This document shows, piece after piece, positions 2,370-22,003 of a DNA stretch of 30,314 nucleotides. This DNA comes from Candidatus Peribacteraceae bacterium (lineage in GTDB: Bacteria > Patescibacteriota > Gracilibacteria > Peribacterales > Peribacteraceae): positions 1 to 30,314 of the forward strand of contig JAQUNQ010000001.1 in the NCBI GenBank assembly GCA_028717505.1, read 5' to 3'. The notes under the pieces are model-generated. The model searched no databases and was not told where the DNA came from. It saw only the letters and a list, made by a program, of their open reading frames with translations. A program made the translations under genes and the position numbers. Position 1 is the first letter of the stretch. The number at the start of each line of letters is the position of its first letter.

Positions 2370-2409
2370 GCCATGAGCGAGTCCCGCATGTGCGGGACGA
2401 GTCGAATGG
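2370..2409. repeat. tRNA-associated palindromic repeat, family 1 (CCATTCGAC...CTCA), copy at tRNA-Ile
   Basis: Reverse complement of 2374-2409 matches 21812-21847 at 35/36 nt; internal hairpin GTCCCGCA/TGCGGGAC; begins with the tRNA CCA. Confidence 0.85.
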
Positions 2410-13129: not shown

Positions 13130-13200
13130 GAAATAATGGGTACGTCATTTCATCGTAGCCGAAAACCACCGCACTTCAAGTATCGCCAAAGATTCGAAGG

Positions 13201-13252
13201 CCCTGAGGGCCTCTCGGGCCCGAAGGGGAGCAGCCGCGCTCTGTCGAATGGG
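13201..13252. repeat. Family-1 palindromic repeat, divergent copy downstream of tRNA-Phe
   Basis: Minus strand CCCATTCGAC...CTCAGGG has the same termini as 21811-21850; GC-rich interior differs. Confidence 0.6.
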
Positions 13253-13269
13253 TACCAAAAGAACCATCG

Positions 13270-13296
13270 CGGCGAAGCGGAGCGAAGCCGGATGGT
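13270..13296. repeat. Family-2 repeat (ACCA-TCCGGCTTCG-x-CTTCG) abutting tRNA-Phe CCA
   Basis: CGAAGCCGGATGGT (13283-13296) is identical to 21782-21795. Confidence 0.7.
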
Positions 13297-13368
13297 GGCC
13301 CAGGCCAGGATCGAACTGGCGACACCTCGCTCTTCAGGCGAGTGCTCTACCAACTGAGCTACCGGGCC
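13293..13368 (-). tRNA. tRNA-Phe (GAA), G at position 37
   Basis: GGCCCGG-TA-GCTC-AGTTGGTA-GAGC-A-CTCGC-CTGAAGA-GCGAG-GTGTC-GCCAG-TTCGATC-CTGGC-CTGGGCC-A-CCA. Confidence 0.95.
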
Positions 13369-13423
13369 ACAACGTCGGCGGAGAGCATAGCAATTCTTTC
13401 TCAGGCAGAAAAGGAGAGATTCA

Positions 13424-13452
13424 TTGAGTCTCTCCCGCCATTTCTGTAGCAT
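13424..13452 (+). promoter_or_regulatory. Probable promoter of tRNA-Ala
   Basis: TTGAGT (13424-13429)-N17-TAGCAT (13447-13452). Confidence 0.45.
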
Positions 13453-13463
13453 GTCGTCACTCT

Positions 13464-13539
13464 GGGGCTGTAGCTCAGTTGGTAGAGCGCCGCATTCGCA
13501 TTGCGGAGATCAGGGGTTCGAATCCCCTCAGCTCCACCA
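13464..13539 (+). tRNA. tRNA-Ala (CGC)
   Basis: GGGGCTG...CCGCA-TTCGCAT-TGCGG...AGGGG-TTCGAAT-CCCCT-CAGCTCC-A-CCA; G3:U70 alanine identity pair. Confidence 0.95.
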
Positions 13540-13541
13540 CA

Positions 13542-13570
13542 CTTCGCTCGCTATGGCGAGCTTCGCGTGA
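13542..13570. repeat. Family-2-like CTTCG-hairpin-CTTCG unit after tRNA-Ala
   Basis: CTTC-GCTCGC-tatg-GCGAGC-TTCG begins 3 nt after the CCA. Confidence 0.55.
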
Positions 13571-13629
13571 AGAGCCACGTTCTCCCGGCGCCCTCTTCTT
13601 CTCGTCCTTTATTTGCTTATTTAAAATGT

Positions 13630-13660
13630 ATTTGCTTAATTAAGCAAATTATATTATAAT
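13630..13660 (+). promoter_or_regulatory. vanW promoter with 20-bp perfect palindrome over the -35 box
   Basis: ATTTGCTTAATTAAGCAAAT (13630-13649) is self-complementary; TTGCTT (13632-13637)-N17-TATAAT (13655-13660). Confidence 0.75.
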
Positions 13661-13681
13661 ATACGACGAACACAAAAAACC

Positions 13682-15079
13682 ATGAAGAAAAACAAAAATA
13701 AGCACTATCTCGGCGTTCCCCTCGCGCTCCTCGGCATCGGATTTTTCTTTATTTTCGGGCCCACGCGTCAAAGTTCCTTCGGCAGTCCGGCCTTCGATTA
13801 CCGCTCGGGCTTCGCGCTGCATTTCGGTAATGTCGCAGCGTTGGCCTTCATGAGGGAAGAGCCTCCCCCCTCCTCTCCTTTCGTGAGAGTGGCACAGCGA
13901 CTCCAGAGGAGACTCGCACAGCATCAACTCGTTATCCCCCCCCTGTCACAGCTGGTCTCGGCGCTCGAGGAGCTCCGCTCCCTCCAGAGACAACGTGTTG
14001 TTGTCGCGCTGGAGACGGCAACAAATCCTGCCTATGGACGCTGGGAGGTGAATCTTCAGAAGTATCCCTCCTGGATATCTCCTTCCTTCACGGAAACGGA
14101 GGCGCACTTCCGTCTCGATGAACAGCGCATGCGCGACTATCTCATGCGGGAAGGAATTGAGGGAGTGATTCCGCCGAAAGGCATCACGCTCACTGAGGTA
14201 AAGCAGGAGAAAGAAATTCAGCGTGTCATCACCGACGATATCGCGCGTGCGGGGTATGTCGCCAATATCCCGGAAACGGTGGAGATGCTCTCCTCTGCGC
14301 TCACCCAGGGCGTGGGGAGCGGAGCTCTGCTCCTCACGGAAAGCGGCGGGCCGATCCACAATACCTCCGGACAGGACCTCGGCGCCCTCACGCTGCTCGG
14401 CACCGGACGCTCGGACTTCCGCGGCTCACCCGGAGCACGCATCTCCAATGTTCAAAAAGCTCTCCGCGAGCATGTGAGCAATACGCTCGTGCCTCCCGGT
14501 GCCACCTTCTCCTTCAATGCAACACTCGACGGACCGGTGACGGAGAGCCGCGGATGGAAGCTCGCCAAAGTCATCTTTGAAGGGAGTGAGCTCCGCATGG
14601 CGCCCGGCGGGGGCATCTGCCAGGCATCCACGACCGTCTTCCGGGCAATTGTCTCGGCGGGTTTCACGGTGCAGGAGCGCGCAAACCACAGCCTCTACGT
14701 GTCCTACTACGAGAAATATGGTGTCGGCATCGACGCAACCGTCTTCCCCGGGCAGCAGGATCTCACGTTCGTCAACGACTCCGGCAATTACCTCCTCCTG
14801 CAGGCCTATGACGAAGGGACGGAAGCAGTGGTGAATATTTACGGAACGCCGGATGGCAGGATCGTGGATCTCCGGGGCCCCTTCTTCGCAGGGAGAGAAC
14901 CGGCAGATTTCTCCTATGCGGGACGCAACAAGCTGAAGGGGAATGAAATTGCCTGGGTCCAGAACGTCACTCGTGCAGATGGAAAGGTGGAGCAGAACGT
15001 CATTATCTCGCGCTACACGGGGATGCCTGCCTCCATCCCGCGGAAGTATGCCCTCCATGCGAGTGCGATCGGGCAGTGA
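13682..15079 (+). CDS. VanW family cell-envelope protein (465 aa)
   Basis: N-terminal TM anchor; VanW domain FSFNATLDGPVTESRGW...GGGICQASTTVFRA...ERANHS...GIDATVF..QQDLTFVND. Confidence 0.88.
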   Translation: MKKNKNKHYLGVPLALLGIGFFFIFGPTRQSSFGSPAFDYRSGFALHFGNVAALAFMREEPPPSSPFVRVAQRLQRRLAQHQLVIPPLSQLVSALEELRSLQRQRVVVALETATNPAYGRWEVNLQKYPSWISPSFTETEAHFRLDEQRMRDYLMREGIEGVIPPKGITLTEVKQEKEIQRVITDDIARAGYVANIPETVEMLSSALTQGVGSGALLLTESGGPIHNTSGQDLGALTLLGTGRSDFRGSPGARISNVQKALREHVSNTLVPPGATFSFNATLDGPVTESRGWKLAKVIFEGSELRMAPGGGICQASTTVFRAIVSAGFTVQERANHSLYVSYYEKYGVGIDATVFPGQQDLTFVNDSGNYLLLQAYDEGTEAVVNIYGTPDGRIVDLRGPFFAGREPADFSYAGRNKLKGNEIAWVQNVTRADGKVEQNVIISRYTGMPASIPRKYALHASAIGQ

Positions 15080-15214
15080 TAGAAAGGGACAAGGGAAATC
15101 CATTGACAACGCGTCGTATTAACAGAGTGATGTGCGAGGTGCCTTCACAAAAATTTCACTGGCAATCAAAGTCCGATCGTCTATACTGGCCGCACTCATT
15201 TCCCTTCTTTTTCT

Positions 15215-15952
15215 ATGTCTATGCAACAGGATCCCGCGAAGTTTTGGTTCGGCCTCTCGATGGTGCTCATCGGAGTGATCGTCGGCTTCACGGCCGCCAA
15301 GACGGTCAACTTCTCCGGTTCTCTGCCGTCTCCGACCGGTGTCGCACAGCCGAAGCAGCCGACAGCCGGAAAACCGACGCCGAGTTCCGCCGCCGCCCCC
15401 GACGCGCCATCGGTGCAGAATGTGCAGGTGCCTGACGCGAAGGAACACCTCCGTGGAACTGCGAACGCGCTCATTACCATTATTGAGTACTCCGATCTTG
15501 AGTGTCCCTTCTGCGCCCGCGTCCATCCGACCATCAAGCAGGCCGTCGATGATTACGACGGCAAGGTGAACTGGGTCTTCCGCCACTACCCGCTCTCCTT
15601 CCATGCCAATGCGCAGAAGGCGGCTGAGGCAACGGAGTGTGCAACGGAGCTGGGCGGCAACGATAAATTCTGGGCAATGACCGACATGCTCTACGAGAAG
15701 GGTTCGGATAACTCGCAGCTCGGCGCGTACGCGAAGGCCATCGGTCTCAATGAGGCTGCCTTCAAGACCTGCCTGGACAGCGGAAAGTTCGCGCAGAAGA
15801 TCGACGACATGATGCAGACGGGCGTGGATGCCGGTGTGCAGGGAACGCCGGGAAACATCATCTACAACAACAAGACGAAGGCGGCGGTCATGGTGTCTGG
15901 CGCGCAACCGATCGCGAACTTCAAGACGGCGATTGACGGTCTCCTCAAGTGA
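15215..15952 (+). CDS. DsbA-family thiol:disulfide oxidoreductase (245 aa)
   Basis: N-terminal TM, Pro/Ala linker, EYSDLECPFCAR (CxxC), WVFRHYPLSFH, GVQGTPG cis-Pro loop. Confidence 0.9.
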   Translation: MSMQQDPAKFWFGLSMVLIGVIVGFTAAKTVNFSGSLPSPTGVAQPKQPTAGKPTPSSAAAPDAPSVQNVQVPDAKEHLRGTANALITIIEYSDLECPFCARVHPTIKQAVDDYDGKVNWVFRHYPLSFHANAQKAAEATECATELGGNDKFWAMTDMLYEKGSDNSQLGAYAKAIGLNEAAFKTCLDSGKFAQKIDDMMQTGVDAGVQGTPGNIIYNNKTKAAVMVSGAQPIANFKTAIDGLLK

Positions 15953-15973
15953 ACATCTCAGATAATGCAATGG

Positions 15974-15998
15974 AAAGGCGGCTTCGGCCGCCTTTTTC
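15974..15998 (+). terminator. Rho-independent terminator after dsbA
   Basis: AAAGGCGGC-TTCG-GCCGCCTTT-TT. Confidence 0.88.
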
Positions 15999-16075
15999 AT
16001 GCTGAGGAAGATATCATTTCCAGATTTACTCTCCCCAAAAGTCCGCTAAAATGAGCTGCCATTTCTCATCGACTT

Positions 16076-17089
16076 ATGCGTGCGCTCCCCCTCGGTCTCG
16101 CACTGGCTTCCCTCCTGCTCCTCTCCTGCGGCGCAGAAACGCCGGACGAACTGGAGACGATACCGGCCAATGGCCAGGAGGCCTTCTCCTCTCCGCAGGA
16201 CACCTCTTCCGGCACGCAGATCATTGAGACGCACAATGTCACCTACACGGGCATCGTGCGCCCGGCAGGGATCAGCATCTACATGGAAGGCAGCCACAAG
16301 ATGGAGCTCCCCGATAATCGCTTCATCCTCCTGGAGAGTGCGAGTGTGGATCTCAACGGGTACGTGGGCGAGATGGCAGAAGTGACCGGCTCCCTTCGCC
16401 CAACCGTGGAGGAGGGTGGCATGATCATGCGTGTGGAGAAGATCCGGCTCCTCGCAGGTTCCTCGTCGTCTGTTTCCTCTCTCTCCTCCTCTCCTCCCTC
16501 CTCAGCCACCCTTTCCTCAAAGGCATCCTCGGCGCCCTCTCCCGCCATCCCTGCCTCCTCCGCTGCGGGGCAGGCAAAGACTCCGACTTCCCCTGCCTCC
16601 TCGGCAGCAAAGCTCAGCAGCGCTTCCCCCGTCTCCTCGAGCGAGCCTGAAGAAGAAATAGAACGGACAGAGACGCCGACTTCCCCCGCTTTCCAGGCAC
16701 GCGTGACCTCTATGGCCAAGCAGAACCTCTCCGCGGAGAACTGGACGCAGCAGTACTGCACGGAACACATCGGCTTCTGCATGCCCGTCCACCGCAACTG
16801 GTGGTACAAGTCCTTCGGGACCACGACCTCTGCCCTCTGGCACGTCGAGGTCAGCTCGGAAGAAATCCAAAGCATAGGGGATGGCCCCATCGTCGTGAGC
16901 CTCGTCTCCGGATCCGTGGCGGCGAAGCACGCGACGGACGGGCAGGTCCGCGCGCAGGGGTCGCTCATCATCGCCTACCGCGAGTGGAGCGGCAACCAGC
17001 ACTTCGAGATCTCCGCTCCCTCTGCACTGGAAAACGCCGTGAGCTACATTGCAGCCAATCTCAAGGCAAACGAAGTGCCGCAGCCCTGA
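16076..17089 (+). CDS. Putative lipoprotein with Ser/Pro/Ala-rich linker (337 aa)
   Basis: Lipobox-like LLLLSC; globular N-domain, low-complexity S/P/A linker, C-domain with YCTEHIGFC Cys pair. Confidence 0.75.
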   Translation: MRALPLGLALASLLLLSCGAETPDELETIPANGQEAFSSPQDTSSGTQIIETHNVTYTGIVRPAGISIYMEGSHKMELPDNRFILLESASVDLNGYVGEMAEVTGSLRPTVEEGGMIMRVEKIRLLAGSSSSVSSLSSSPPSSATLSSKASSAPSPAIPASSAAGQAKTPTSPASSAAKLSSASPVSSSEPEEEIERTETPTSPAFQARVTSMAKQNLSAENWTQQYCTEHIGFCMPVHRNWWYKSFGTTTSALWHVEVSSEEIQSIGDGPIVVSLVSGSVAAKHATDGQVRAQGSLIIAYREWSGNQHFEISAPSALENAVSYIAANLKANEVPQP

Positions 17090-17134
17090 GCGTCAACCCC
17101 TTTCCACCCCCTTTTGGTCTGGTAGGATAGCGCC

Positions 17135-17713
17135 ATGCCATTCTTCACGTATTCGGCGCACGGATCGGACGGGAAGATACAGGAAGGCACCATCGATGCC
17201 CTGAGTCTGCAGGCGGCACGCGAGGCGCTCCGGGAGATGCGCCTGGAGCCCGACACGATCGAGGAGAAGGCCCTCGCAGGGCAGGAGTTCCCTCCCATGC
17301 CGTTCGAGCGCGAGAGCACCGCTGCCCCCGACGCCCCCTCCACGACGCCAACGGAAGTGTCTTTCTCCCCCGTCGCCCCCCCGCCGGAACTCCCATCAGC
17401 CGATACTCCAGCCGAGCCGCTCTATTTCCCTCTCCTTGATACGCTCCGCCTCTATGCGGGCTGGCTCGTCGCCTGGTACTTCCTCGTCTACGCCGTCGGC
17501 TCCTACCAGTATCAGCGCTCGCTCCCCTTCTCCATTCCCTACGTGGAGGGGCTCTTCCTCTCCCCGCTCGTCCTGAGCTTCACGCTCGCCGCCTATCTCT
17601 TCCTCGTTCTGACAGGCATCCACCGCAAAGGACACGGCGGCTTCCTCAGCGGACTCCTCCTCGCATTCGTCGGCGTTGCTGTGTTTCTCCTCTACCGGCG
17701 GAACGTGCTCTAG
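17135..17713 (+). CDS. Membrane protein with PilC/GspF-like N-terminal motif (192 aa)
   Basis: MPFFTYSAHGSDGKIQEGTIDALSLQAAREALREM resembles PilC N-termini; then a Pro-rich linker and about three TM helices. ATG 6 nt after TAGGAT. Confidence 0.7.
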   Translation: MPFFTYSAHGSDGKIQEGTIDALSLQAAREALREMRLEPDTIEEKALAGQEFPPMPFERESTAAPDAPSTTPTEVSFSPVAPPPELPSADTPAEPLYFPLLDTLRLYAGWLVAWYFLVYAVGSYQYQRSLPFSIPYVEGLFLSPLVLSFTLAAYLFLVLTGIHRKGHGGFLSGLLLAFVGVAVFLLYRRNVL

Positions 17714-18372
17714 AGGCCGAGCTGCTTGCGGATCTCCTCCGCCTGTTGCGTTTCCTGCCCGCGCGCTTTCTGCTGCTGGGAGATGGCCTGGAGATCCTTC
17801 CAGTCCTCCACATGCTTCTCCTCGAGCCGCTTGAGCTGCAGGAGGTGCTTCGGGCTCAACTCCGCAAACTTCTTCTTCTCCTCCTCAAGGATCTTCTGGA
17901 GTTCGTCGATCTGGAACTGCGAGAGCTTCGGAATGGCTTGAATAATCCTCCACTTCTCGTCACGGGTGAGGGAGATGCTGCCACGAAGGAAGGTGAGGAA
18001 CTTCTGCTCGTCGAAGTTGGTTTCCGGATGGGTCGGCACGGGAATGCCCTCGTTCGAGAGCGTGACGGTGATACTCCCGAACCGATAGTTGCCCACCTCG
18101 CCGAGGATGCGGAGATCTTCATCGTCATAGCCCATCTCCTTCGTCGCAACGGTGCCCGGCGGGGGCGGAGGCGGACCGGCGTCCGGCGGCATTGCGCCGG
18201 CTGCTCCGTCCTGCTGCCCTGCCGCAGACTGCTGCGCCTGCGGAGGCGGGGGGGGAGGCGGGGGGGGAGTGCCGAAGACTTGCGTCGGGTCGAGTCCTCC
18301 TGCCGGGATAGGATCCCCTGGACGGGGTGGATTGGCCTGATCGGAAGGCGGCGGAGGAGGAGGGGTCGCCAT
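17710..18372 (-). CDS. Hypothetical protein, Pro-rich N-terminus plus helical C-domain (220 aa)
   Basis: Protein-like composition, poly-Pro tracts, helical domain FDEQKFLTFLRGSISLTRDEKWRIIQAIPKLSQFQIDEL; TACACT box 8 nt before ATG. Confidence 0.8.
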   Translation of the reverse strand: MATPPPPPPSDQANPPRPGDPIPAGGLDPTQVFGTPPPPPPPPPQAQQSAAGQQDGAAGAMPPDAGPPPPPPGTVATKEMGYDDEDLRILGEVGNYRFGSITVTLSNEGIPVPTHPETNFDEQKFLTFLRGSISLTRDEKWRIIQAIPKLSQFQIDELQKILEEEKKKFAELSPKHLLQLKRLEEKHVEDWKDLQAISQQQKARGQETQQAEEIRKQLGL

Positions 18373-18437
18373 AGAAAAAAAGTGTACGTCTGGATCAGTC
18401 TAGCAGCGCTTCGTAGCCTGACAAACGGAAAATCACC

Positions 18438-20474
18438 TTACACAGCGAGCGCCTTCTCCGCCGCCCTGCGTGCCCGGACGATGAATTCCGGACTCCAGAA
18501 AGAGCCGATGAGCCTGTCGAAGGCCACGCCACTCTGGCGTGTGCCGAAGAGCTCCCCCGGCCCCCGGATCTTCAGGTCAATTTCCGCGAGCAGGAAACCG
18601 CTGTCATGCTCCTCCATCGCCTTTAGGCGCACCGAGCGCGCCTGCTCGGGCGTGGTGGTGAAGAGGAAACAATGGCTCTGGTGCTCGCCCCGCCCCACCC
18701 GCCCGCGGAACTGATGGAGCTGCGCGAGCCCGAAGCGCTCCGCCCCCTCGATGAGCATGACGGTCGCATTCGGGACATCGATGCCCACTTCGATGACGGA
18801 CGTGGAAATGAGCAAATCGAAGGCACGCTCCTTGAAGAGGCGCATGACTTCCGTCTTCTCCTGCGCCGCCATCTTCCCGTGGAGAATGGCGATCCGCCGG
18901 TGCAGAAAGCTCTCCTTCAGGCGCTTCTCCTCCGCTTTCACGCTCTTCACATCGAGCATCTCCTCATTCCCGGATTCCTCGATGAGCGGGCAGATGACGA
19001 AGACCTGTCGCCCTTGTCCGATCTCATGATCGATGAAGCGTTCCACGACGACGCGCTCCCCGGGGGCGACGACCTTCGTGTGGATCTTCTGGCGGTGCCC
19101 GGGCTTCTCGAGGAGGACGGAGAGATCATGATGCCCGAAGGCCGTGAGTGCGAGCGTGCGGGGGATGGGCGTGGCGGTCATCGCGAGGAAGTGCGGACTC
19201 CCCTTCTCCTGCAGGCGCTGGCGCTGCTCCACGCCGAAGCGATGCTGCTCATCCACGACGACGAACTTAAGATCGCGGAAAGACACGCTGTCCTGAATGA
19301 GCGCGTGCGTGCCCACGAGGAGATCGATGAACCCCTCGCTGAGATTCCGCTTGATTTTCAGCGCCTCCTGCGGAGGGATGGAGCCCGTGAGGAGCGCTAC
19401 GACGGGCGGCAGGCGGCGGGCAGGAACCGATTTCCCCACTGCGCGTTCCTGTTCGAGGAACGTGTGGAACTTGAGGAGCAGCCTCCCCATCGTCTCGACG
19501 TGCTGCCGTGCGAGCACCTCCGTCGGCACCATGAGTGCACACTGGCCCCCGTGGTAGAGCACGTGCGCGATCACGGCCGTCGCTACGAGCGTCTTGCCGG
19601 AACCGACGTCCCCCTCGAGGAGGCGCGACATCGGCTCGGGCTTCTCCATGTCCCGCAGGATCTCGTAGATAGCGATCTTCTGGCTTCCCGTCGGGGTGAA
19701 GCGGAGTGACTGGAAGAAGAGCTTCATGAACGCGGCATCCATGGGAATCTTCAGCCGCTCCTGCCGCGCCCCCTGCCAGTCACGCTTGCGTTCGAGTGCG
19801 GCCATCTGGATCCGGTACATCTCCTCGAAGGCGATGCGCTGCATGGCGCGCTCCACCTCTTCCGGCTTCTCGGGGAAGTGCAGCGCCCGGATGGCATCCT
19901 TCCGCGAGAGGAGCCCCTCCTCGCGGATTACGGGCTCCGGGAGTGACTCGGAGAGCTGCTCGATGGCCTCTTTCACGAGGACCATCTTCTCGCGGAGCCA
20001 CTTGGTGGAGATGATATCGTGCTGCGGGTAGATGGGCACGAGCCGGCCCGCATGGACGAGGGGGCGCATCCCGGCCTGCTCGAACTGGGGACTCTGCATC
20101 TTGAGCTTATAGCCCTCCTCAATCAGCTTCCCCGTGAGCACCACCTCCCCGCCCTCGCGGAGCATGCGCTTCACGTGCGGCTGATTGAACCAGACGATCT
20201 CCGCCGTCGCGCCATCCGTGTCGATGAAGCGCGCAGTGACGAGGGACTTCCCCCGTCGTGTCCGGATGAGCTTGATATTCTCCACGGTTCCGCGAAGCGT
20301 CACCTTCGCATCGAGCGCCGCGGTCGCAAGCGTCTGGATCTGGCTCAGGTCCTCGTGGCTCCGTGGGAGGTAGAGAAGGAGATCCTCCACCGTCTTCAGG
20401 CCCATCCCTTCGAGGGCCTGCCAGTGCTGCGGCGTCGTGCGCAGAACATCCTTGAGGGGCGCGGAAAGTTGCAC
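18438..20474 (-). CDS. recG: ATP-dependent DNA helicase RecG (678 aa)
   Basis: DLLLYLPR, RLLEGDVGSGKT, VGTHALIQ, VVDEQHRFGVEQR, MTATPIPRTL, LHQFRGRVGRG, DLKIRGPGE. GTG 6 nt after TATACT. Confidence 0.97.
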   Translation of the reverse strand: MQLSAPLKDVLRTTPQHWQALEGMGLKTVEDLLLYLPRSHEDLSQIQTLATAALDAKVTLRGTVENIKLIRTRRGKSLVTARFIDTDGATAEIVWFNQPHVKRMLREGGEVVLTGKLIEEGYKLKMQSPQFEQAGMRPLVHAGRLVPIYPQHDIISTKWLREKMVLVKEAIEQLSESLPEPVIREEGLLSRKDAIRALHFPEKPEEVERAMQRIAFEEMYRIQMAALERKRDWQGARQERLKIPMDAAFMKLFFQSLRFTPTGSQKIAIYEILRDMEKPEPMSRLLEGDVGSGKTLVATAVIAHVLYHGGQCALMVPTEVLARQHVETMGRLLLKFHTFLEQERAVGKSVPARRLPPVVALLTGSIPPQEALKIKRNLSEGFIDLLVGTHALIQDSVSFRDLKFVVVDEQHRFGVEQRQRLQEKGSPHFLAMTATPIPRTLALTAFGHHDLSVLLEKPGHRQKIHTKVVAPGERVVVERFIDHEIGQGRQVFVICPLIEESGNEEMLDVKSVKAEEKRLKESFLHRRIAILHGKMAAQEKTEVMRLFKERAFDLLISTSVIEVGIDVPNATVMLIEGAERFGLAQLHQFRGRVGRGEHQSHCFLFTTTPEQARSVRLKAMEEHDSGFLLAEIDLKIRGPGELFGTRQSGVAFDRLIGSFWSPEFIVRARRAAEKALAV

Positions 20475-20577
20475 GAAGGCAGTATACCGTCAGGCCTACC
20501 AAGCCAGCACCTCTGTCCCTTGTCAGCCCCGATTCGTTGCCGCAGCCCCCTTGAGATGGGAAAATTGCCTTATGCGT

Positions 20578-21051
20578 ATGAAAACTCTCCCCCTTGCCCT
20601 CAGTGCCGCTCTTCTGGCCCTCTCCTTCACTGCACCCGCATTGGCCGCCGATAGTGACTCCTCCGGGACGGGCTCCACCCTTCCGGTCACTTCCCCGGTG
20701 GACGAGGATCTCCAGCGTTTTGAAGATGAGTGCCGCTCACGCTTCAATTTCGGTCAGGGGGATCTGCAGGGACAGGGAGCCCTCCTCTTCAAGATCCGGG
20801 AGTGCGTCAATCAGCTGCAGCAGGAGAAGCGGACGGCCGAGAAGCGGGAGAAGGAACGCGAGCGTCTCCGACTCAGAGAGGAACGGGAGGCAGTGAGGCG
20901 CGCGAACATCTCCGCGCGGATGCGCCATGGCTTCGAGGCGTCTGCAGAGCGAAATGCCCTGAGGCTCCGTGGACAGGGACGAAGTACAACCCAGAGCCGC
21001 GACCCCAAGGTCTACCTGAAGATACGCAGGAGTCTGCGTTCCACGCAGTAA
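20578..21051 (+). CDS. Secreted hypothetical protein, coiled-coil and Arg-rich (157 aa)
   Basis: Signal peptide MKTLPLALSAALLALSFTAPALA; two Cys; charged helical C-half. Confidence 0.7.
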   Translation: MKTLPLALSAALLALSFTAPALAADSDSSGTGSTLPVTSPVDEDLQRFEDECRSRFNFGQGDLQGQGALLFKIRECVNQLQQEKRTAEKREKERERLRLREEREAVRRANISARMRHGFEASAERNALRLRGQGRSTTQSRDPKVYLKIRRSLRSTQ

Positions 21052-21090
21052 AGCATGTTTATCTTCGGAAGAAGGCGGTATGATGGAAAC

Positions 21091-21747
21091 ATGGAAGAAC
21101 TCCTCGATGTGTATGATCTGCAGGATCGCCTGATTGGCGTGGAGGAGCGCTCAAAGTTCTACCGCGAGATCGAGGCGGAGTTCAAAGCAAAGAGGAAGAT
21201 CACGAAGAAGGTGAAGACCATCCGCGTCCTCCTCATGAATTCGCAGGGACGCGTCTACGTCCAAAAGCGCAGCCTCATCAAGATGCACAACGCGGGCCTC
21301 TACGACAAGACGATCGGCGGACACATTCTCCATGGTCATACCGTGCACGTCACGCTCGTGAAGGAATGCGCGGAGGAGCTCGGCATCCCCGCGGTCATGC
21401 TTCCGGATGACGAGTTCGCCCGCGCCGTCACCTCGACGAACCTCGGCATCATCGGCATCTTCAAGAAGACGGAACTCGTCACGCATTACCCCTCCGTCCG
21501 GAAGACGAAGGAGGAGGATATCCTGCAACCGTTCATCAATACCTTCATCATTGGCTACTACGACGGAGCCATCCGGTTCTGTGACGGAGAGTCCTCCGGC
21601 ATCGAGGTCTTCGGTCTCCCGGAGCTGCGGGACGCCATTCTCAAAAATCCCGAGCGCTACACGGACGACCTGCGTCACTTCATCGAGAAATATCAGCAGC
21701 ACATTATTCCCGTCAAAAAGATCAAGATTCCTCCTGCGGAGGTGTGA
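21091..21747 (+). CDS. Nudix hydrolase, IDI type-1-like (218 aa)
   Basis: ELLDVYD...IG; YVQKRSLIK...GLYDKTIGGH; variant Nudix box GHILHGHTVHVTLVKECAEELGI. ATG 6 nt after TATGAT. Confidence 0.8.
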   Translation: MEELLDVYDLQDRLIGVEERSKFYREIEAEFKAKRKITKKVKTIRVLLMNSQGRVYVQKRSLIKMHNAGLYDKTIGGHILHGHTVHVTLVKECAEELGIPAVMLPDDEFARAVTSTNLGIIGIFKKTELVTHYPSVRKTKEEDILQPFINTFIIGYYDGAIRFCDGESSGIEVFGLPELRDAILKNPERYTDDLRHFIEKYQQHIIPVKKIKIPPAEV

Positions 21748-21766
21748 TGTTTCGAACAAACATCTC

Positions 21767-21811
21767 GGCGTAGTCCGCAGACGAAGCCGGATGGTCGGGG
21801 CGGCGCGACTC
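21767..21811 (-). repeat. Duplicated 3' end of tRNA-Pro plus family-2 repeat
   Basis: TGGTCGGGGCGGCGCGACTC at 21792-21811 equals 21927-21946; followed on the minus strand by TCCGGCTTCG-tctgcgga-CTACG-CCG. Confidence 0.85.
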
Positions 21812-21929
21812 CCATTCGACTCGTCCCGCACGTGCGGGACTCGCTCAGGGTAAACTTCTCGTCGCGCTTTCGTTCTCACGACAGTGTGGCTTGCCATGAG
21901 TGAACGAACGGAGTGAGTGAATCGAATGG
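21812..21929. mobile_element. Non-autonomous REPIN/MITE-like mini-element at the tRNA-Pro 3' end
   Basis: Terminal inverted repeats CCATTCGACTC (21812-21822) / GAATCGAATGG (21919-21929), 10/11 match; two inverted family-1 units; flanked by a 20-bp direct repeat of the tRNA end. Confidence 0.65.
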
Positions 21930-22003
21930 TCGGGGCGGCGCGACTCGAACGCGCGACCTCCTGCTCCCAAAGCAGGCACTCTAGCCAACTGAGCTACGCC
22001 CCG
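21927..22003 (-). tRNA. tRNA-Pro (UGG)
   Basis: CGGGGCG-TA-GCTC-AGTTGGCTA-GAGT-G-CCTGC-TTTGGGA-GCAGG-AGGTC-GCGCG-TTCGAGT-CGCGC-CGCCCCG-A-CCA. Confidence 0.95.

Follow-up and report, generated by a model that had tools for sequence, protein, structure and literature searches.

Casposons are driven by Cas1 and target the 3' end of tRNA genes, with duplications of 14-15 bp. Ssn nucleases bind hairpin repeats in single-stranded DNA and cut approximately 7 nt 5' of the palindrome; IS-like mobility of the gene and its repeat unit was raised only as a hypothesis in that work, and its main text mentions neither tRNAs nor target duplications (Chenal et al., 2025, Nat Commun; PMC11893778). Phage T4 carries segB, a free-standing GIY-YIG homing endonuclease gene, within a tRNA cluster (PMC2330249). 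Here, we analyzed a window of 30,314 nucleotides from a 1.07-Mb Candidatus Peribacteria-type MAG with 45 tRNAs, in which a hairpin repeat, F2, follows the CCA end of tRNA genes. We consider, with a probability of roughly two in three, that F2 is the structured end-module of small insertion elements belonging to cassettes that encode GIY-YIG nucleases of 79-91 aa. We found no description, in the literature searched, of such an element inserting right after the tRNA CCA with a target duplication of 16-22 bases.

The nearest published system to F2 is Ssn/SRM. In both, a single-domain GIY-YIG protein of about 80-95 aa (79-91 aa here; about 90-100 aa is the size that defines Ssn) is encoded with hairpin repeats of 20-50 nt that have conserved, oriented flanks and occur in multiple copies in the genome, and the repeat type is paired with the protein lineage. 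The inner hairpin on the F2 side, TCCCGC..GCGGGA, also resembles the core of the Ssn NTS, TTCCCGCG..GCGGGAA. By contrast, a second, outer stem that is conserved encloses the F2 hairpin, the repeats form an inverted pair located 5' of the gene, and copies sit at tRNA CCA ends with long target duplications. The published SRM motif was matched by none of 42 F2 units and was not enriched in this genome (9 matches versus 6-13 in dinucleotide shuffles). Casposons resemble F2 in tRNA 3'-end insertion, terminal inverted repeats and unusually long target duplications, but F2 elements measure 66-500 nt instead of kilobases, their duplication is longer and variable, and no match to Cas1 (PF01867) was found in the genome. 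T4 segB and the cassettes described here are alike as selfish GIY-YIG genes among tRNA genes; the cassettes differ in their hairpin repeats, their non-autonomous derivatives and their position behind many differing tRNAs, and in proteins of 79-91 aa that are nearly all catalytic domain, which leaves no room for a separate DNA-binding domain. The mobility of gene and repeat unit was left open for Ssn (PMC11893778), whereas the F2 repeats show marks of insertion events, namely defined inverted ends, long target duplications and serial insertions into a duplicated target. These marks make the question testable, as to the cut site of the enzyme and the reason for the choice of tRNA ends.

Repeats at tRNA ends in the window

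The tRNA-Phe(GAA) gene (13293..13368, minus strand; ARAGORN, Rfam tRNA) is one target, its CCA abutting an F2 unit of the form TCCGGCTTCG-CTCCG-CTTCGCCGCGA plus TGG (13264..13292, minus strand). Without this TGG, which pairs with the CCA of the tRNA in the fold, the unit spans 13292..13267 on the minus strand. It is a minimal form whose inner hairpin is nearly absent, and a similar short form was observed after a displaced tRNA-Phe 3' end in another genus (G021, locus L014). A family-1-like unit (TTCGAC...hairpin...CTCAGGG; 13200..13248, minus strand) follows after CCCA, about 20 nt past the F2 unit.

At the second locus, the intact tRNA-Pro(TGG) (21927..22003, minus strand; ARAGORN, Rfam tRNA) is followed after its CCA by a 115-nt family-1 mini-element in which a spacer separates a forward from an inverted unit (21812..21926, minus strand). 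Next come 20 nt that directly repeat the 3' end of tRNA-Pro, from the T-loop to the CCA (21792..21811, minus strand), and a canonical F2 unit, TCCGGCTTCG-TCTGCGGA-CTACGCCGAGA (21763..21791, minus strand), which is the old tRNA-Pro trailer, now displaced. The 20-nt copy is the target sequence duplicated when family 1 inserted. Since the displaced 3'-end copy keeps the F2 unit, and since in genus G014 (locus L067) tRNA-Pro(tgg) is followed directly by the same F2, family 1 arrived later at this locus, as a sequence-only reading of the window had proposed. The interior of the mini-element recurs after tRNA-Leu(taa) on contig C130 and, in part, after tRNA-Gln on contig C6.

The trailer of tRNA-Ala(CGC), CA-CTTCG-CTCGCTATGGCGAG-CTTCG-CGTG (13540..13569, plus strand), was compared by sequence and fold. 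It has the loop-hairpin-loop plan of F2, and relatives carry kindred CCA/xCCTTCG hairpins after tRNA-Ala and other tRNAs. Because the TCCGG leader and the GCCG tail are absent and the outer stem differs, this copy is a variant, nearer to a sister repeat type, and not canonical F2. The sequence-only reading had placed it in family 2; the CTTCG-hairpin-CTTCG trailer is indeed present, but the assignment to F2 proper does not hold. All the trailer sequences quoted in that reading were recovered (Phe and Pro-copy trailers on the minus strand, Ala on the plus strand), as were the 14 nt ACCATCCGGCTTCG identical at the Phe trailer and the duplicated Pro end, and the order by locus (family 2 then 1 at Phe, 1 ahead of 2 at Pro, 1 only at Ile, 2 only at Ala). 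Canonical terminators are used by the organism, for example near position 15965.

Structure of the F2 unit

F2 reads CCA/TCCGGCTYCG, a variable hairpin, then CTNNGCCG-N-GA, and the unit is an imperfect palindrome whose first base is the base after the CCA of the target. In the fold shared by approximately 42 distinct copies, TCCGGC pairs with GCCG-N-GA, with N bulged, to form an outer stem, which in many copies is lengthened by pairing of the CCA with TGG. A 3x3 pyrimidine loop (TYC opposite TNC) follows, then a closing G-C pair and an inner hairpin of variable sequence. In an alignment of 23 copies, four pairs of the inner helix showed compensatory changes, and 99.3% of cells paired versus 32-45% when the partners were slid.

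Such co-variation would also be expected if F2 were a host-selected RNA structure of tRNA precursors, acting in 3'-processing, stabilization or termination and inherited vertically, with the nuclease genes merely inserting nearby; a trailer whose TGG pairs with the tRNA CCA would then sequester the 3' end. However, the F2 units have no downstream T-run and none was flagged in the terminator scan, even though this organism uses canonical terminators, so that F2 does not qualify as an intrinsic terminator.

Association with tRNA genes and distribution

Taken alone, the pentamer CTTCG, found 5807 times in the genome, carries no meaning. The 10-mer TCCGGCTYCG occurs 39 times, 10 of them with hairpin and tail; the remaining 29 have neither hairpin and tail nor an adjoining tRNA, and look like chance matches, mostly coding. 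Every one of the 10 structured copies with a CCA prefix lies at a tRNA end, eight directly after the tRNA CCA and two after a duplicated tRNA 3' end; a looser pattern gives 12 copies. Among 26 genomes of the bacterial family, the structured pattern far exceeds chance (137 matches versus 15 for the reversed control). These results confirm that a second family of repeats is associated with tRNA 3' ends and dispose of the generic UUCG-hairpin alternative, given the tRNA enrichment and a TCCGG leader common to many loci.

About 120 F2 copies were found in 21 of the 26 genomes, behind differing tRNAs in differing genera. Of 24 genera sampled in the family, 18 have the CCA-prefixed motif, which was absent from all 16 genomes sampled in other families of the same class. 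Metagenome contigs resembling other phyla hold F2-like copies. F2 is thus spread over the whole bacterial family and is no local deposit. In the genome under study, about half of the 45 tRNAs carry a trailer of this kind.

The same tRNA types carry F2 in several genera (Pro, Ser, Thr, Leu, Gly, Val), with conserved outer sequence. This recurrence, seen for Pro(tgg) here and in G014, for Phe here and in G021, and for Ser and Thr, could reflect host-level selection. By contrast, orthologous tRNAs vary between F2, family 1 and no repeat, identical copies of 25-41 nt stand behind differing tRNAs and in differing genera, and F2 units also occur inverted and away from tRNAs, within or next to rRNA genes and where a GTPase gene begins, with target duplications. 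Taken together, these observations make a host RNA structure an unlikely origin for F2.

Inverted pairs and target duplications

Inverted F2 pairs of 66-120 nt lie between direct target duplications of 16-22 nt, at times longer, at tRNA and non-tRNA sites. Their ends are TCCGGCTTCG ... CGAAGCCGGA. The pair at a tRNA-Ile on contig C53 of this genome has a duplication of 18/18, and others were found at Pro-ggg (21 nt), Leu-cag (16/16), Val-cac (15/16), Gly-tcc (20/21, three serial copies) and Cys (22 nt), as well as on metagenome contigs at Pro-tgg (19/19) and Ser (16/16, twice). At tRNA genes, the duplication left by the short elements extends from the T-loop or T-stem to the CCA. One non-tRNA site covers the initial 26 nt of a GTPase gene, and others lie within or beside rRNA genes; the non-tRNA targets share no obvious common hairpin. 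Most copies of F2 are lone units without duplication, and no empty-versus-filled pair of one site was seen among close strains. Classical IS and MITE elements have terminal inverted repeats and a fixed short target duplication made by a DDE transposase; here, inverted ends and duplications are both present, the latter variable (13 to about 35 nt).

Islands that integrate into tRNA genes classically show a duplication from T-loop to CCA, and F2 units with their duplications could be read as decayed attL/attR scars of such integrase-driven islands. The duplicated segment, however, matches each of many differing targets and varies in length, and is therefore made on insertion rather than borne by the element; moreover, the elements measure merely 66-120 nt, and the genome holds one weak partial match to a tyrosine recombinase and no serine recombinase. 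We regard att scars as a very improbable origin.

Without dedicated transposition, break repair or replication template-switching could carry copies of the elements between CCA ends by way of CCA microhomology; the polymerase would stall at hairpins, and the nuclease would contribute a nick at most. Such copying would accommodate a left junction that always follows CCA or TCA, a variable duplication, frequent lone or one-ended copies and coding cassettes without duplications. On the other hand, the right boundary is sharp, ...CGRAGCCGG(R/G), and mirrors the left end, which a random switch-back would not give. Template-switching is accordingly a highly doubtful source of these elements.

Link with small GIY-YIG nucleases

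The nuclease part of our preferred reading draws on the small GIY-YIG genes near the repeats. In this genome all four such genes are located immediately 3' of tRNAs, as are 13 of the 29 that were sampled from relatives. The ten genes located at most 250 nt after an F2 pair all fall in one clade, where none of the 32 others falls; support for this clade is moderate (UFboot 91, aLRT 56), rising to 99/97 only together with its sister clade. These F2-linked genes sit behind Gly-gcc, Gly-ccc, Gly-tcc, Thr-cgt and Leu-taa, and the same F2 cassette occurs behind at least five tRNA species. Beside the gene, the F2 repeats are found on the 5' side only, directly upstream, as an inverted pair. Other GIY-YIG clades go with family 1 or with further hairpins, so that repeat type and nuclease clade travel paired behind differing tRNAs. 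Genes of these other clades are bordered by direct target duplications. Those at tRNA genes measure 13, about 40 and about 65 nt, and another, within a 5S rRNA gene, measures about 52 nt.

The proteins measure 79, 86 and 91 aa and PF01541 spans nearly their full length; the only other Pfam match is a borderline, overlapping T5orf172 on two of them, and NCBIfam gave no match. Among solved proteins, the closest are SLX1 (E 2.5e-4), a structure-specific nuclease, and UPF0213 BH0048. To judge from these matches, the cassette proteins are tiny single-domain GIY-YIG proteins, probably SLX1/Ssn-like nucleases.

The co-occurrence of the repeats with a small nuclease gene, GIY-YIG or HUH, had been put forward as a check. 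It is borne out for the GIY-YIG genes, while no HUH enzyme accounts for F2. REPIN-like doublets moved by a RAYT, a Y1_Tnp HUH transposase, would have the inverted layout seen here: like F2, REP and REPIN are short imperfect palindromes, single or in inverted doublets, genome-wide and tied to a small nuclease gene. CGTAG is present on the complementary strand of F2, the genome has one RAYT-like gene (C34:5152-5520), and many relatives have several copies of about 150 aa. But the RAYT-like gene is not flanked by F2, the partner of F2 is a GIY-YIG nuclease, and the number of F2 units does not follow the presence of Y1_Tnp: G023 (99% complete, 4 contigs) has 18 units, some with fresh-looking duplications, and no Y1_Tnp match, while G006, G016 and G024 have 2-5 Y1_Tnp genes each and no F2. 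F2 differs from REPIN further in its target-site duplications and its strict CCA target; to our knowledge, insertion by a Y1 transposase leaves no target duplication, which disfavors this reading. We therefore give REPIN-like mobilization very little probability.

Putative insertion mechanism

If F2 is an end-module of nuclease-linked insertion elements, two inverted units would constitute a non-autonomous element of 66-120 nt, and the coding cassette would comprise the inverted pair, a -10 box and the GIY-YIG gene. From the spacing, the nuclease would bind the hairpin extruded in single-stranded DNA and nick at a fixed 8-10 nt 5' of it, at the CCA/T junction. In a tRNA gene, the T-arm hairpin lies about equally far from the CCA end, on the opposite strand, and may be the natural target; nicks staggered between T-loop and CCA end would account for the long duplication. 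Lone units, including the two in the window, would be remnants, either old or one-ended, that are maintained or regenerated at tRNA ends. Since no target duplication was detectable for the cassettes with an F2 pair and a GIY-YIG gene, movement of the coding form is putative, and the gene may simply adjoin its own recognition site, like a free-standing homing endonuclease gene.

A broader scheme, which we put forward tentatively and consider possible rather than probable, is that Ssn-type nucleases drive an undescribed mode of insertion in CPR and several other phyla, with a single-stranded hairpin as ruler, a nick 8-11 nt beside it, T-arm mimicry, and families 1, 2 and others as co-evolving ends. 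If true, the likeness of the T-arm to the hairpin would explain why the CCA end is targeted and why the 16-22 nt from T-loop to CCA are duplicated. F2 and family-1 elements would explain much of the non-coding DNA near tRNA genes in these very small genomes; for annotators, the conserved tRNA trailers and partial tRNA copies found here are best treated as element scars, not genes.

Relationship between families 1 and 2

The two families had been described as independent systems deposited in succession, and the independence was not upheld. Both have the inner hairpin GTCCCGCAnnTGCGGGAC and a spacing of 8-9 nt from the CCA junction, they agree in insertion site and in long target duplications, and the nucleases that accompany them form separate clades of a single GIY-YIG family. 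Because all of these are held in common, families 1 and 2 are sister lines of one system. The family-1 unit directly after tRNA-Ile(TAT) in the window (2371..2406, minus strand; sequence and fold) has the same inner hairpin as several F2 copies.

Trailer repeats in the window and their enrichment at tRNA ends

The sequence-only reading had described two repeat families behind the tRNA genes of the window, and its description of the trailers was accurate. We define the families as F2 (TCCGG leader, variable hairpin, tail) and family 1 (TTCGAC...CTCAGGG). The trailers agree with the reading, including the 14 bases identical between the tRNA-Phe and tRNA-Pro loci. On the minus strand, tRNA-Phe (13293-13368) is directly followed by the F2 unit TCCGGCTTCG-CTCCG-CTTCGCCGCGA (13292..13267), and a 20-nt duplicate of the tRNA-Pro 3' end (21792-21811) by the unit TCCGGCTTCG-TCTGCGGA-CTACGCCGAGA (21791..21763). 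Between this end copy and the real tRNA-Pro gene (21927-22003, minus strand) lies a 115-nt family-1 element, also on the minus strand, with inverted family-1 units at both ends. A family-1 unit and no other repeat was found at tRNA-Ile(TAT), and tRNA-Ala carries CA-CTTCG-hairpin-CTTCG without the TCCGG leader. An Rfam search of the window returned four tRNAs above the family threshold and nothing else.

We then considered the genome of the window (G000; 1.07 Mb, 60% G+C). The pentamer CTTCG occurs 5807 times genome-wide and alone carries no meaning. The 10-mer TCCGGCTYCG occurs 39 times; ten copies have a hairpin and the CTNNGCCGNGA tail, and all ten lie directly after a tRNA CCA (Pro-cgg, Ser-gga, Ile-gat, Gln-ttg, Phe, Val-tac, Val-cac and Gly-gcc) or after a duplicated tRNA 3' end (Pro-tgg and Gly-tcc). 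The remaining 29 have neither hairpin and tail nor an adjoining tRNA. Variant trailers were observed at Tyr, Lys-ctt and Ala. Structured copies in G000 are thus confined to tRNA ends, as expected for the tRNA-targeting family first proposed and not for generic CTTCG hairpins.

Fold of the F2 unit

Every F2 copy that we folded adopts a common structure: an outer stem pairing TCCGGC with GCCG-N-GA (N bulged), often extended by pairing of the tRNA's CCA with a downstream TGG; a 3x3 internal loop with TYC opposite TNC, followed by a closing G-C pair; and an inner stem, 3-12 bp long and variable in sequence among copies. In an alignment of 23 copies, 99.3% of inner-helix cells pair, compared to 32-45% when the 3' partners are slid, and four inner-helix pairs show compensatory changes. 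Since these copies were chosen on their outer sequence alone, their inner pairing was observed independently of the choice. On the complementary strand, the loop (GNA opposite GRA) could form tandem sheared G-A pairs, and the active strand could therefore be either one. A terminator scan flagged no F2 unit and no T-run is present 3' of the units, so that a function as intrinsic terminator was rejected.

Insertion signature

A frequent F2 layout consists of a forward unit, a spacer and an inverted unit ending in ...CGRAGCCGG, so that the ends of the element are inverted repeats (TCCGGCTTCG ... CGAAGCCGGA). These F2-pair elements measure 66-120 nt and have direct target repeats on both sides. 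Duplications were found at tRNA-Ile-gat in G000 (contig C53; 18/18) and, in relatives, at Pro-ggg (G019; 21 nt), Leu-cag (G014; 16/16), Val-cac (G004; 15/16), Cys (G023; 22 nt) and Gly-tcc (G041; 20/21), where three serial copies are each preceded by the tRNA 3' end or its remnant. In metagenome contigs they occur at Pro-tgg (19/19) and at two Ser sites (16/16 and 16/16). At tRNA genes the duplication begins either in the T-loop or in the 3' T-stem strand and runs through CCA. Non-tRNA sites with a CCA or TCA end carry duplications of 16-26 nt; at a translational GTPase gene, the first 26 nt are duplicated and the start stays intact.

Family-1 elements share this signature, with duplications of 20 nt at the tRNA-Pro of the window and 20 nt at tRNA-Gln (contig C6 of G000). 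Moreover, in G014 a unit identical to the displaced F2 trailer of the window lies directly after tRNA-Pro(tgg). Together with the 20-nt duplication around the family-1 element, this supports the proposal that family 1 arrived after F2 at tRNA-Pro. The sequence GACGAGAAGTTTACCCYGAGCG, inside the 115-nt element, is found again behind tRNA-Leu(taa) and tRNA-Gln(ctg) (window 13150-13260; C6 and C130 of G000). The 3' end of the tRNA-Gln gene is repeated twice in succession behind it (C6:3317 and 4213), indicating serial insertions.

The strongest rival explanation is a host RNA function of F2, which its covariation and its recurrence behind the same tRNA types would favor. However, as a main explanation it fits poorly with inverted copies, non-tRNA sites, target duplications and identical copies behind different tRNAs, nor are the units terminator-like, and we consider it unlikely.

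Small GIY-YIG genes travel with the repeats

Among possible mobilizers, integrase scars, casposons and retro-elements were rejected because searches of G000 found no reverse transcriptase, Cas1 or serine recombinase, and only one weak piece of a tyrosine recombinase. HUH enzymes, also suggested initially, were considered as RAYT and do not account for the distribution: no Y1_Tnp gene was found in G023 despite its 18 F2 units, and F2 does not flank the only RAYT-like HUH (Y1_Tnp) gene of G000 (C34:5152-5520, minus strand). The open frame of this gene is continuous with a downstream RdgB/HAM1-like pyrophosphatase sequence (394 aa), and it contains an internal hairpin with an 8-bp stem; relatives have at most 10 such copies of ~150 aa each.

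The other nuclease type suggested for a co-occurrence check gave a positive result, as both F2 pairs and family-1 units accompany small GIY-YIG genes. G000 has four, all just 3' of tRNAs on the same strand. An F2 inverted pair precedes the gene after tRNA-Gly-gcc, family-1 units precede that after tRNA-Glu, and a third hairpin family, which also trails two tRNA-Met genes, precedes that after tRNA-Trp. The gene after tRNA-Gly-tcc (C57:1375-1590, L033) lies within an insertion that ends with an inverted family-1 unit and a 13-nt duplicate, followed by the old F2 trailer; this gene has an in-frame TGA but no start codon in frame, and probably represents a copy in decay. A TGA within small GIY-YIG genes recurs among relatives.

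Each of the 26 genomes of the bacterial family has several of these genes (maximum 15 per genome), and for 13 of 29 sampled a tRNA lies upstream at a distance of no more than 350 nt. In a maximum-likelihood tree of 42 proteins, the ten genes that follow an F2 pair at a distance of at most 250 nt group in a single clade, which contains none of the 32 others (UFboot 91, aLRT 56; 99/97 jointly with its sister clade). They follow Gly-gcc, Gly-ccc, Gly-tcc, Thr-cgt or Leu-taa, and the -10 box and start codon lie no more than ~13 nt past the inverted F2 unit. Members of the sister clade are preceded by related CCA/xCCTTCG hairpins, and family-1-linked genes belong to other clades. The two families are thus better described as sister lines of one GIY-YIG-linked system than as the independent systems initially proposed.

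The proteins (79-91 aa) match essentially only the GIY-YIG catalytic domain, and an NCBIfam search gave them no family name; among proteins of solved structure, the closest are SLX1, a structure-specific nuclease, and BH0048, a UPF0213 protein. Target duplicates of 13-65 nt also bracket GIY-YIG genes of other clades, in one case within a 5S rRNA gene. There (L202, G009:C24:13500-14700), a third-family cassette (CGTAAAATCGC...GATCACGTGGCGC) follows ...CTACCA with a ~52-nt direct duplication, and the 5S gene has an F2 unit immediately outside it. At five loci of relatives (L013, L018, L021, L040 and L042), GIY-YIG genes of another clade that do not adjoin tRNAs are flanked by TGTCAYCCTGAGCG..GTCGAAGGRTGACA palindromes, which are the family-1 core without tRNA context.

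In the F2-pair coding cassettes, we looked for a target duplication past the GIY-YIG gene and detected none. The gene may home beside existing F2 sites, the short pairs alone transposing, or these cassettes may simply be old copies. Lone units make up the majority of F2 copies.

Comparison with Ssn/SRM and proposed mechanism

Ssn nucleases are single-domain GIY-YIG proteins that bind oriented NTS/SRM hairpin repeats, exclusively in single-stranded DNA, and cut ~7 nt 5' of the palindrome; gene type is paired with repeat type, and IS-like mobility was put forward only as a hypothesis (Chenal et al., 2025, PMC11893778). F2 would work like an SRM. In contrast, the published SRM motif matches none of 42 F2 units and is not enriched in G000, and was rejected as the identity of F2. 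The main text of that study mentions neither tRNA nor duplication, and our literature searches on GIY-YIG combined with tRNA targeting or with palindromic repeats, on UPF0213/YhbQ and on repeats of Peribacteria yielded no description. Relative to the searchable literature, tRNA CCA ends as target and the insertion signature are therefore new within the Ssn/SRM kind.

Position, structure, inverted ends, target duplications and co-travel with one nuclease clade are all observed for F2. From these we infer that the nuclease would recognize the extruded F2 hairpin and nick at a fixed distance. In F2, the inner helix invariably lies 9 nt 3' of the CCA/T junction; the distance is 8-9 nt in family 1. 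In a tRNA gene, the T-arm hairpin of the antisense strand is 11 nt away from the CCA boundary, which would make such a gene a natural look-alike target. The observed 16-22-nt duplication would follow from a second nick, placed in the T-loop.

Distribution in relatives and other phyla

Of 24 other genera of the bacterial family, 18 carry the CCA-prefixed motif, whereas all 16 genomes sampled from other families of the class gave no match; reversed-motif controls gave 0-1 match per genome. Without the CCA prefix, the structured pattern gave 137 matches vs. 15 for the control in 26 genomes of the family (maximum 22 per genome). The preceding tRNAs differ among genera (Leu-taa, Gly-tcc, Val-cac, Thr-ggt/tgt/cgt, Ser-cga/gga, Leu-cag/caa, Pro-tgg/ggg, Cys), and copies of the short TCTGCGGA form that follow different tRNAs, in at least eight genera, share 25-29 identical nt. 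In G023 (L207/L208), an F2 unit starts an insertion in conserved domain IV of the 23S rRNA gene, and an inverted unit lies ~25 nt 3' of the 16S rRNA end.

Scans of viral and metagenome contigs added 95 CCA-prefixed copies with the canonical fold, 21 of them directly after tRNAs, and, in GC-rich contigs, a second F2-like class whose tail is GCCGTGACAAGC; some members of this class sit antisense in a tRNA T-arm after ...GATCGAACCA. A 596-Gb genome scan without the CCA prefix gave, among the matches listed (mostly GC-rich genomes), F2-like hairpins in Acidobacteriota, PVC-group and Planctomycetota MAGs, and a search of 8 kb around these listed hairpins found no GIY-YIG gene. We conclude that F2 is both widespread and old.

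At seven loci in GC-rich, non-CPR-looking metagenome contigs (L265, L267, L283, L285, L334, L358 and L384), F2-like pairs with the GCCGTGACAAGC tail are nested within a larger palindrome (TGGCAGCCGGGACGGCTGCCCCA / F2 ... F2inv / TGGGGCAG...), which appears to be a related high-copy repeat of other phyla. Finally, a 19-20-nt palindrome, CCTGCCTGCCGGCAGGCAGG, was observed in several genera (L014 in G021, L022 in G020, L039 in G006 and L205 in G010) within the T-loop or D-arm of displaced tRNA fragments or the loop of an F2 hairpin, and looks like a separate tiny insertion aimed at hairpin loops.
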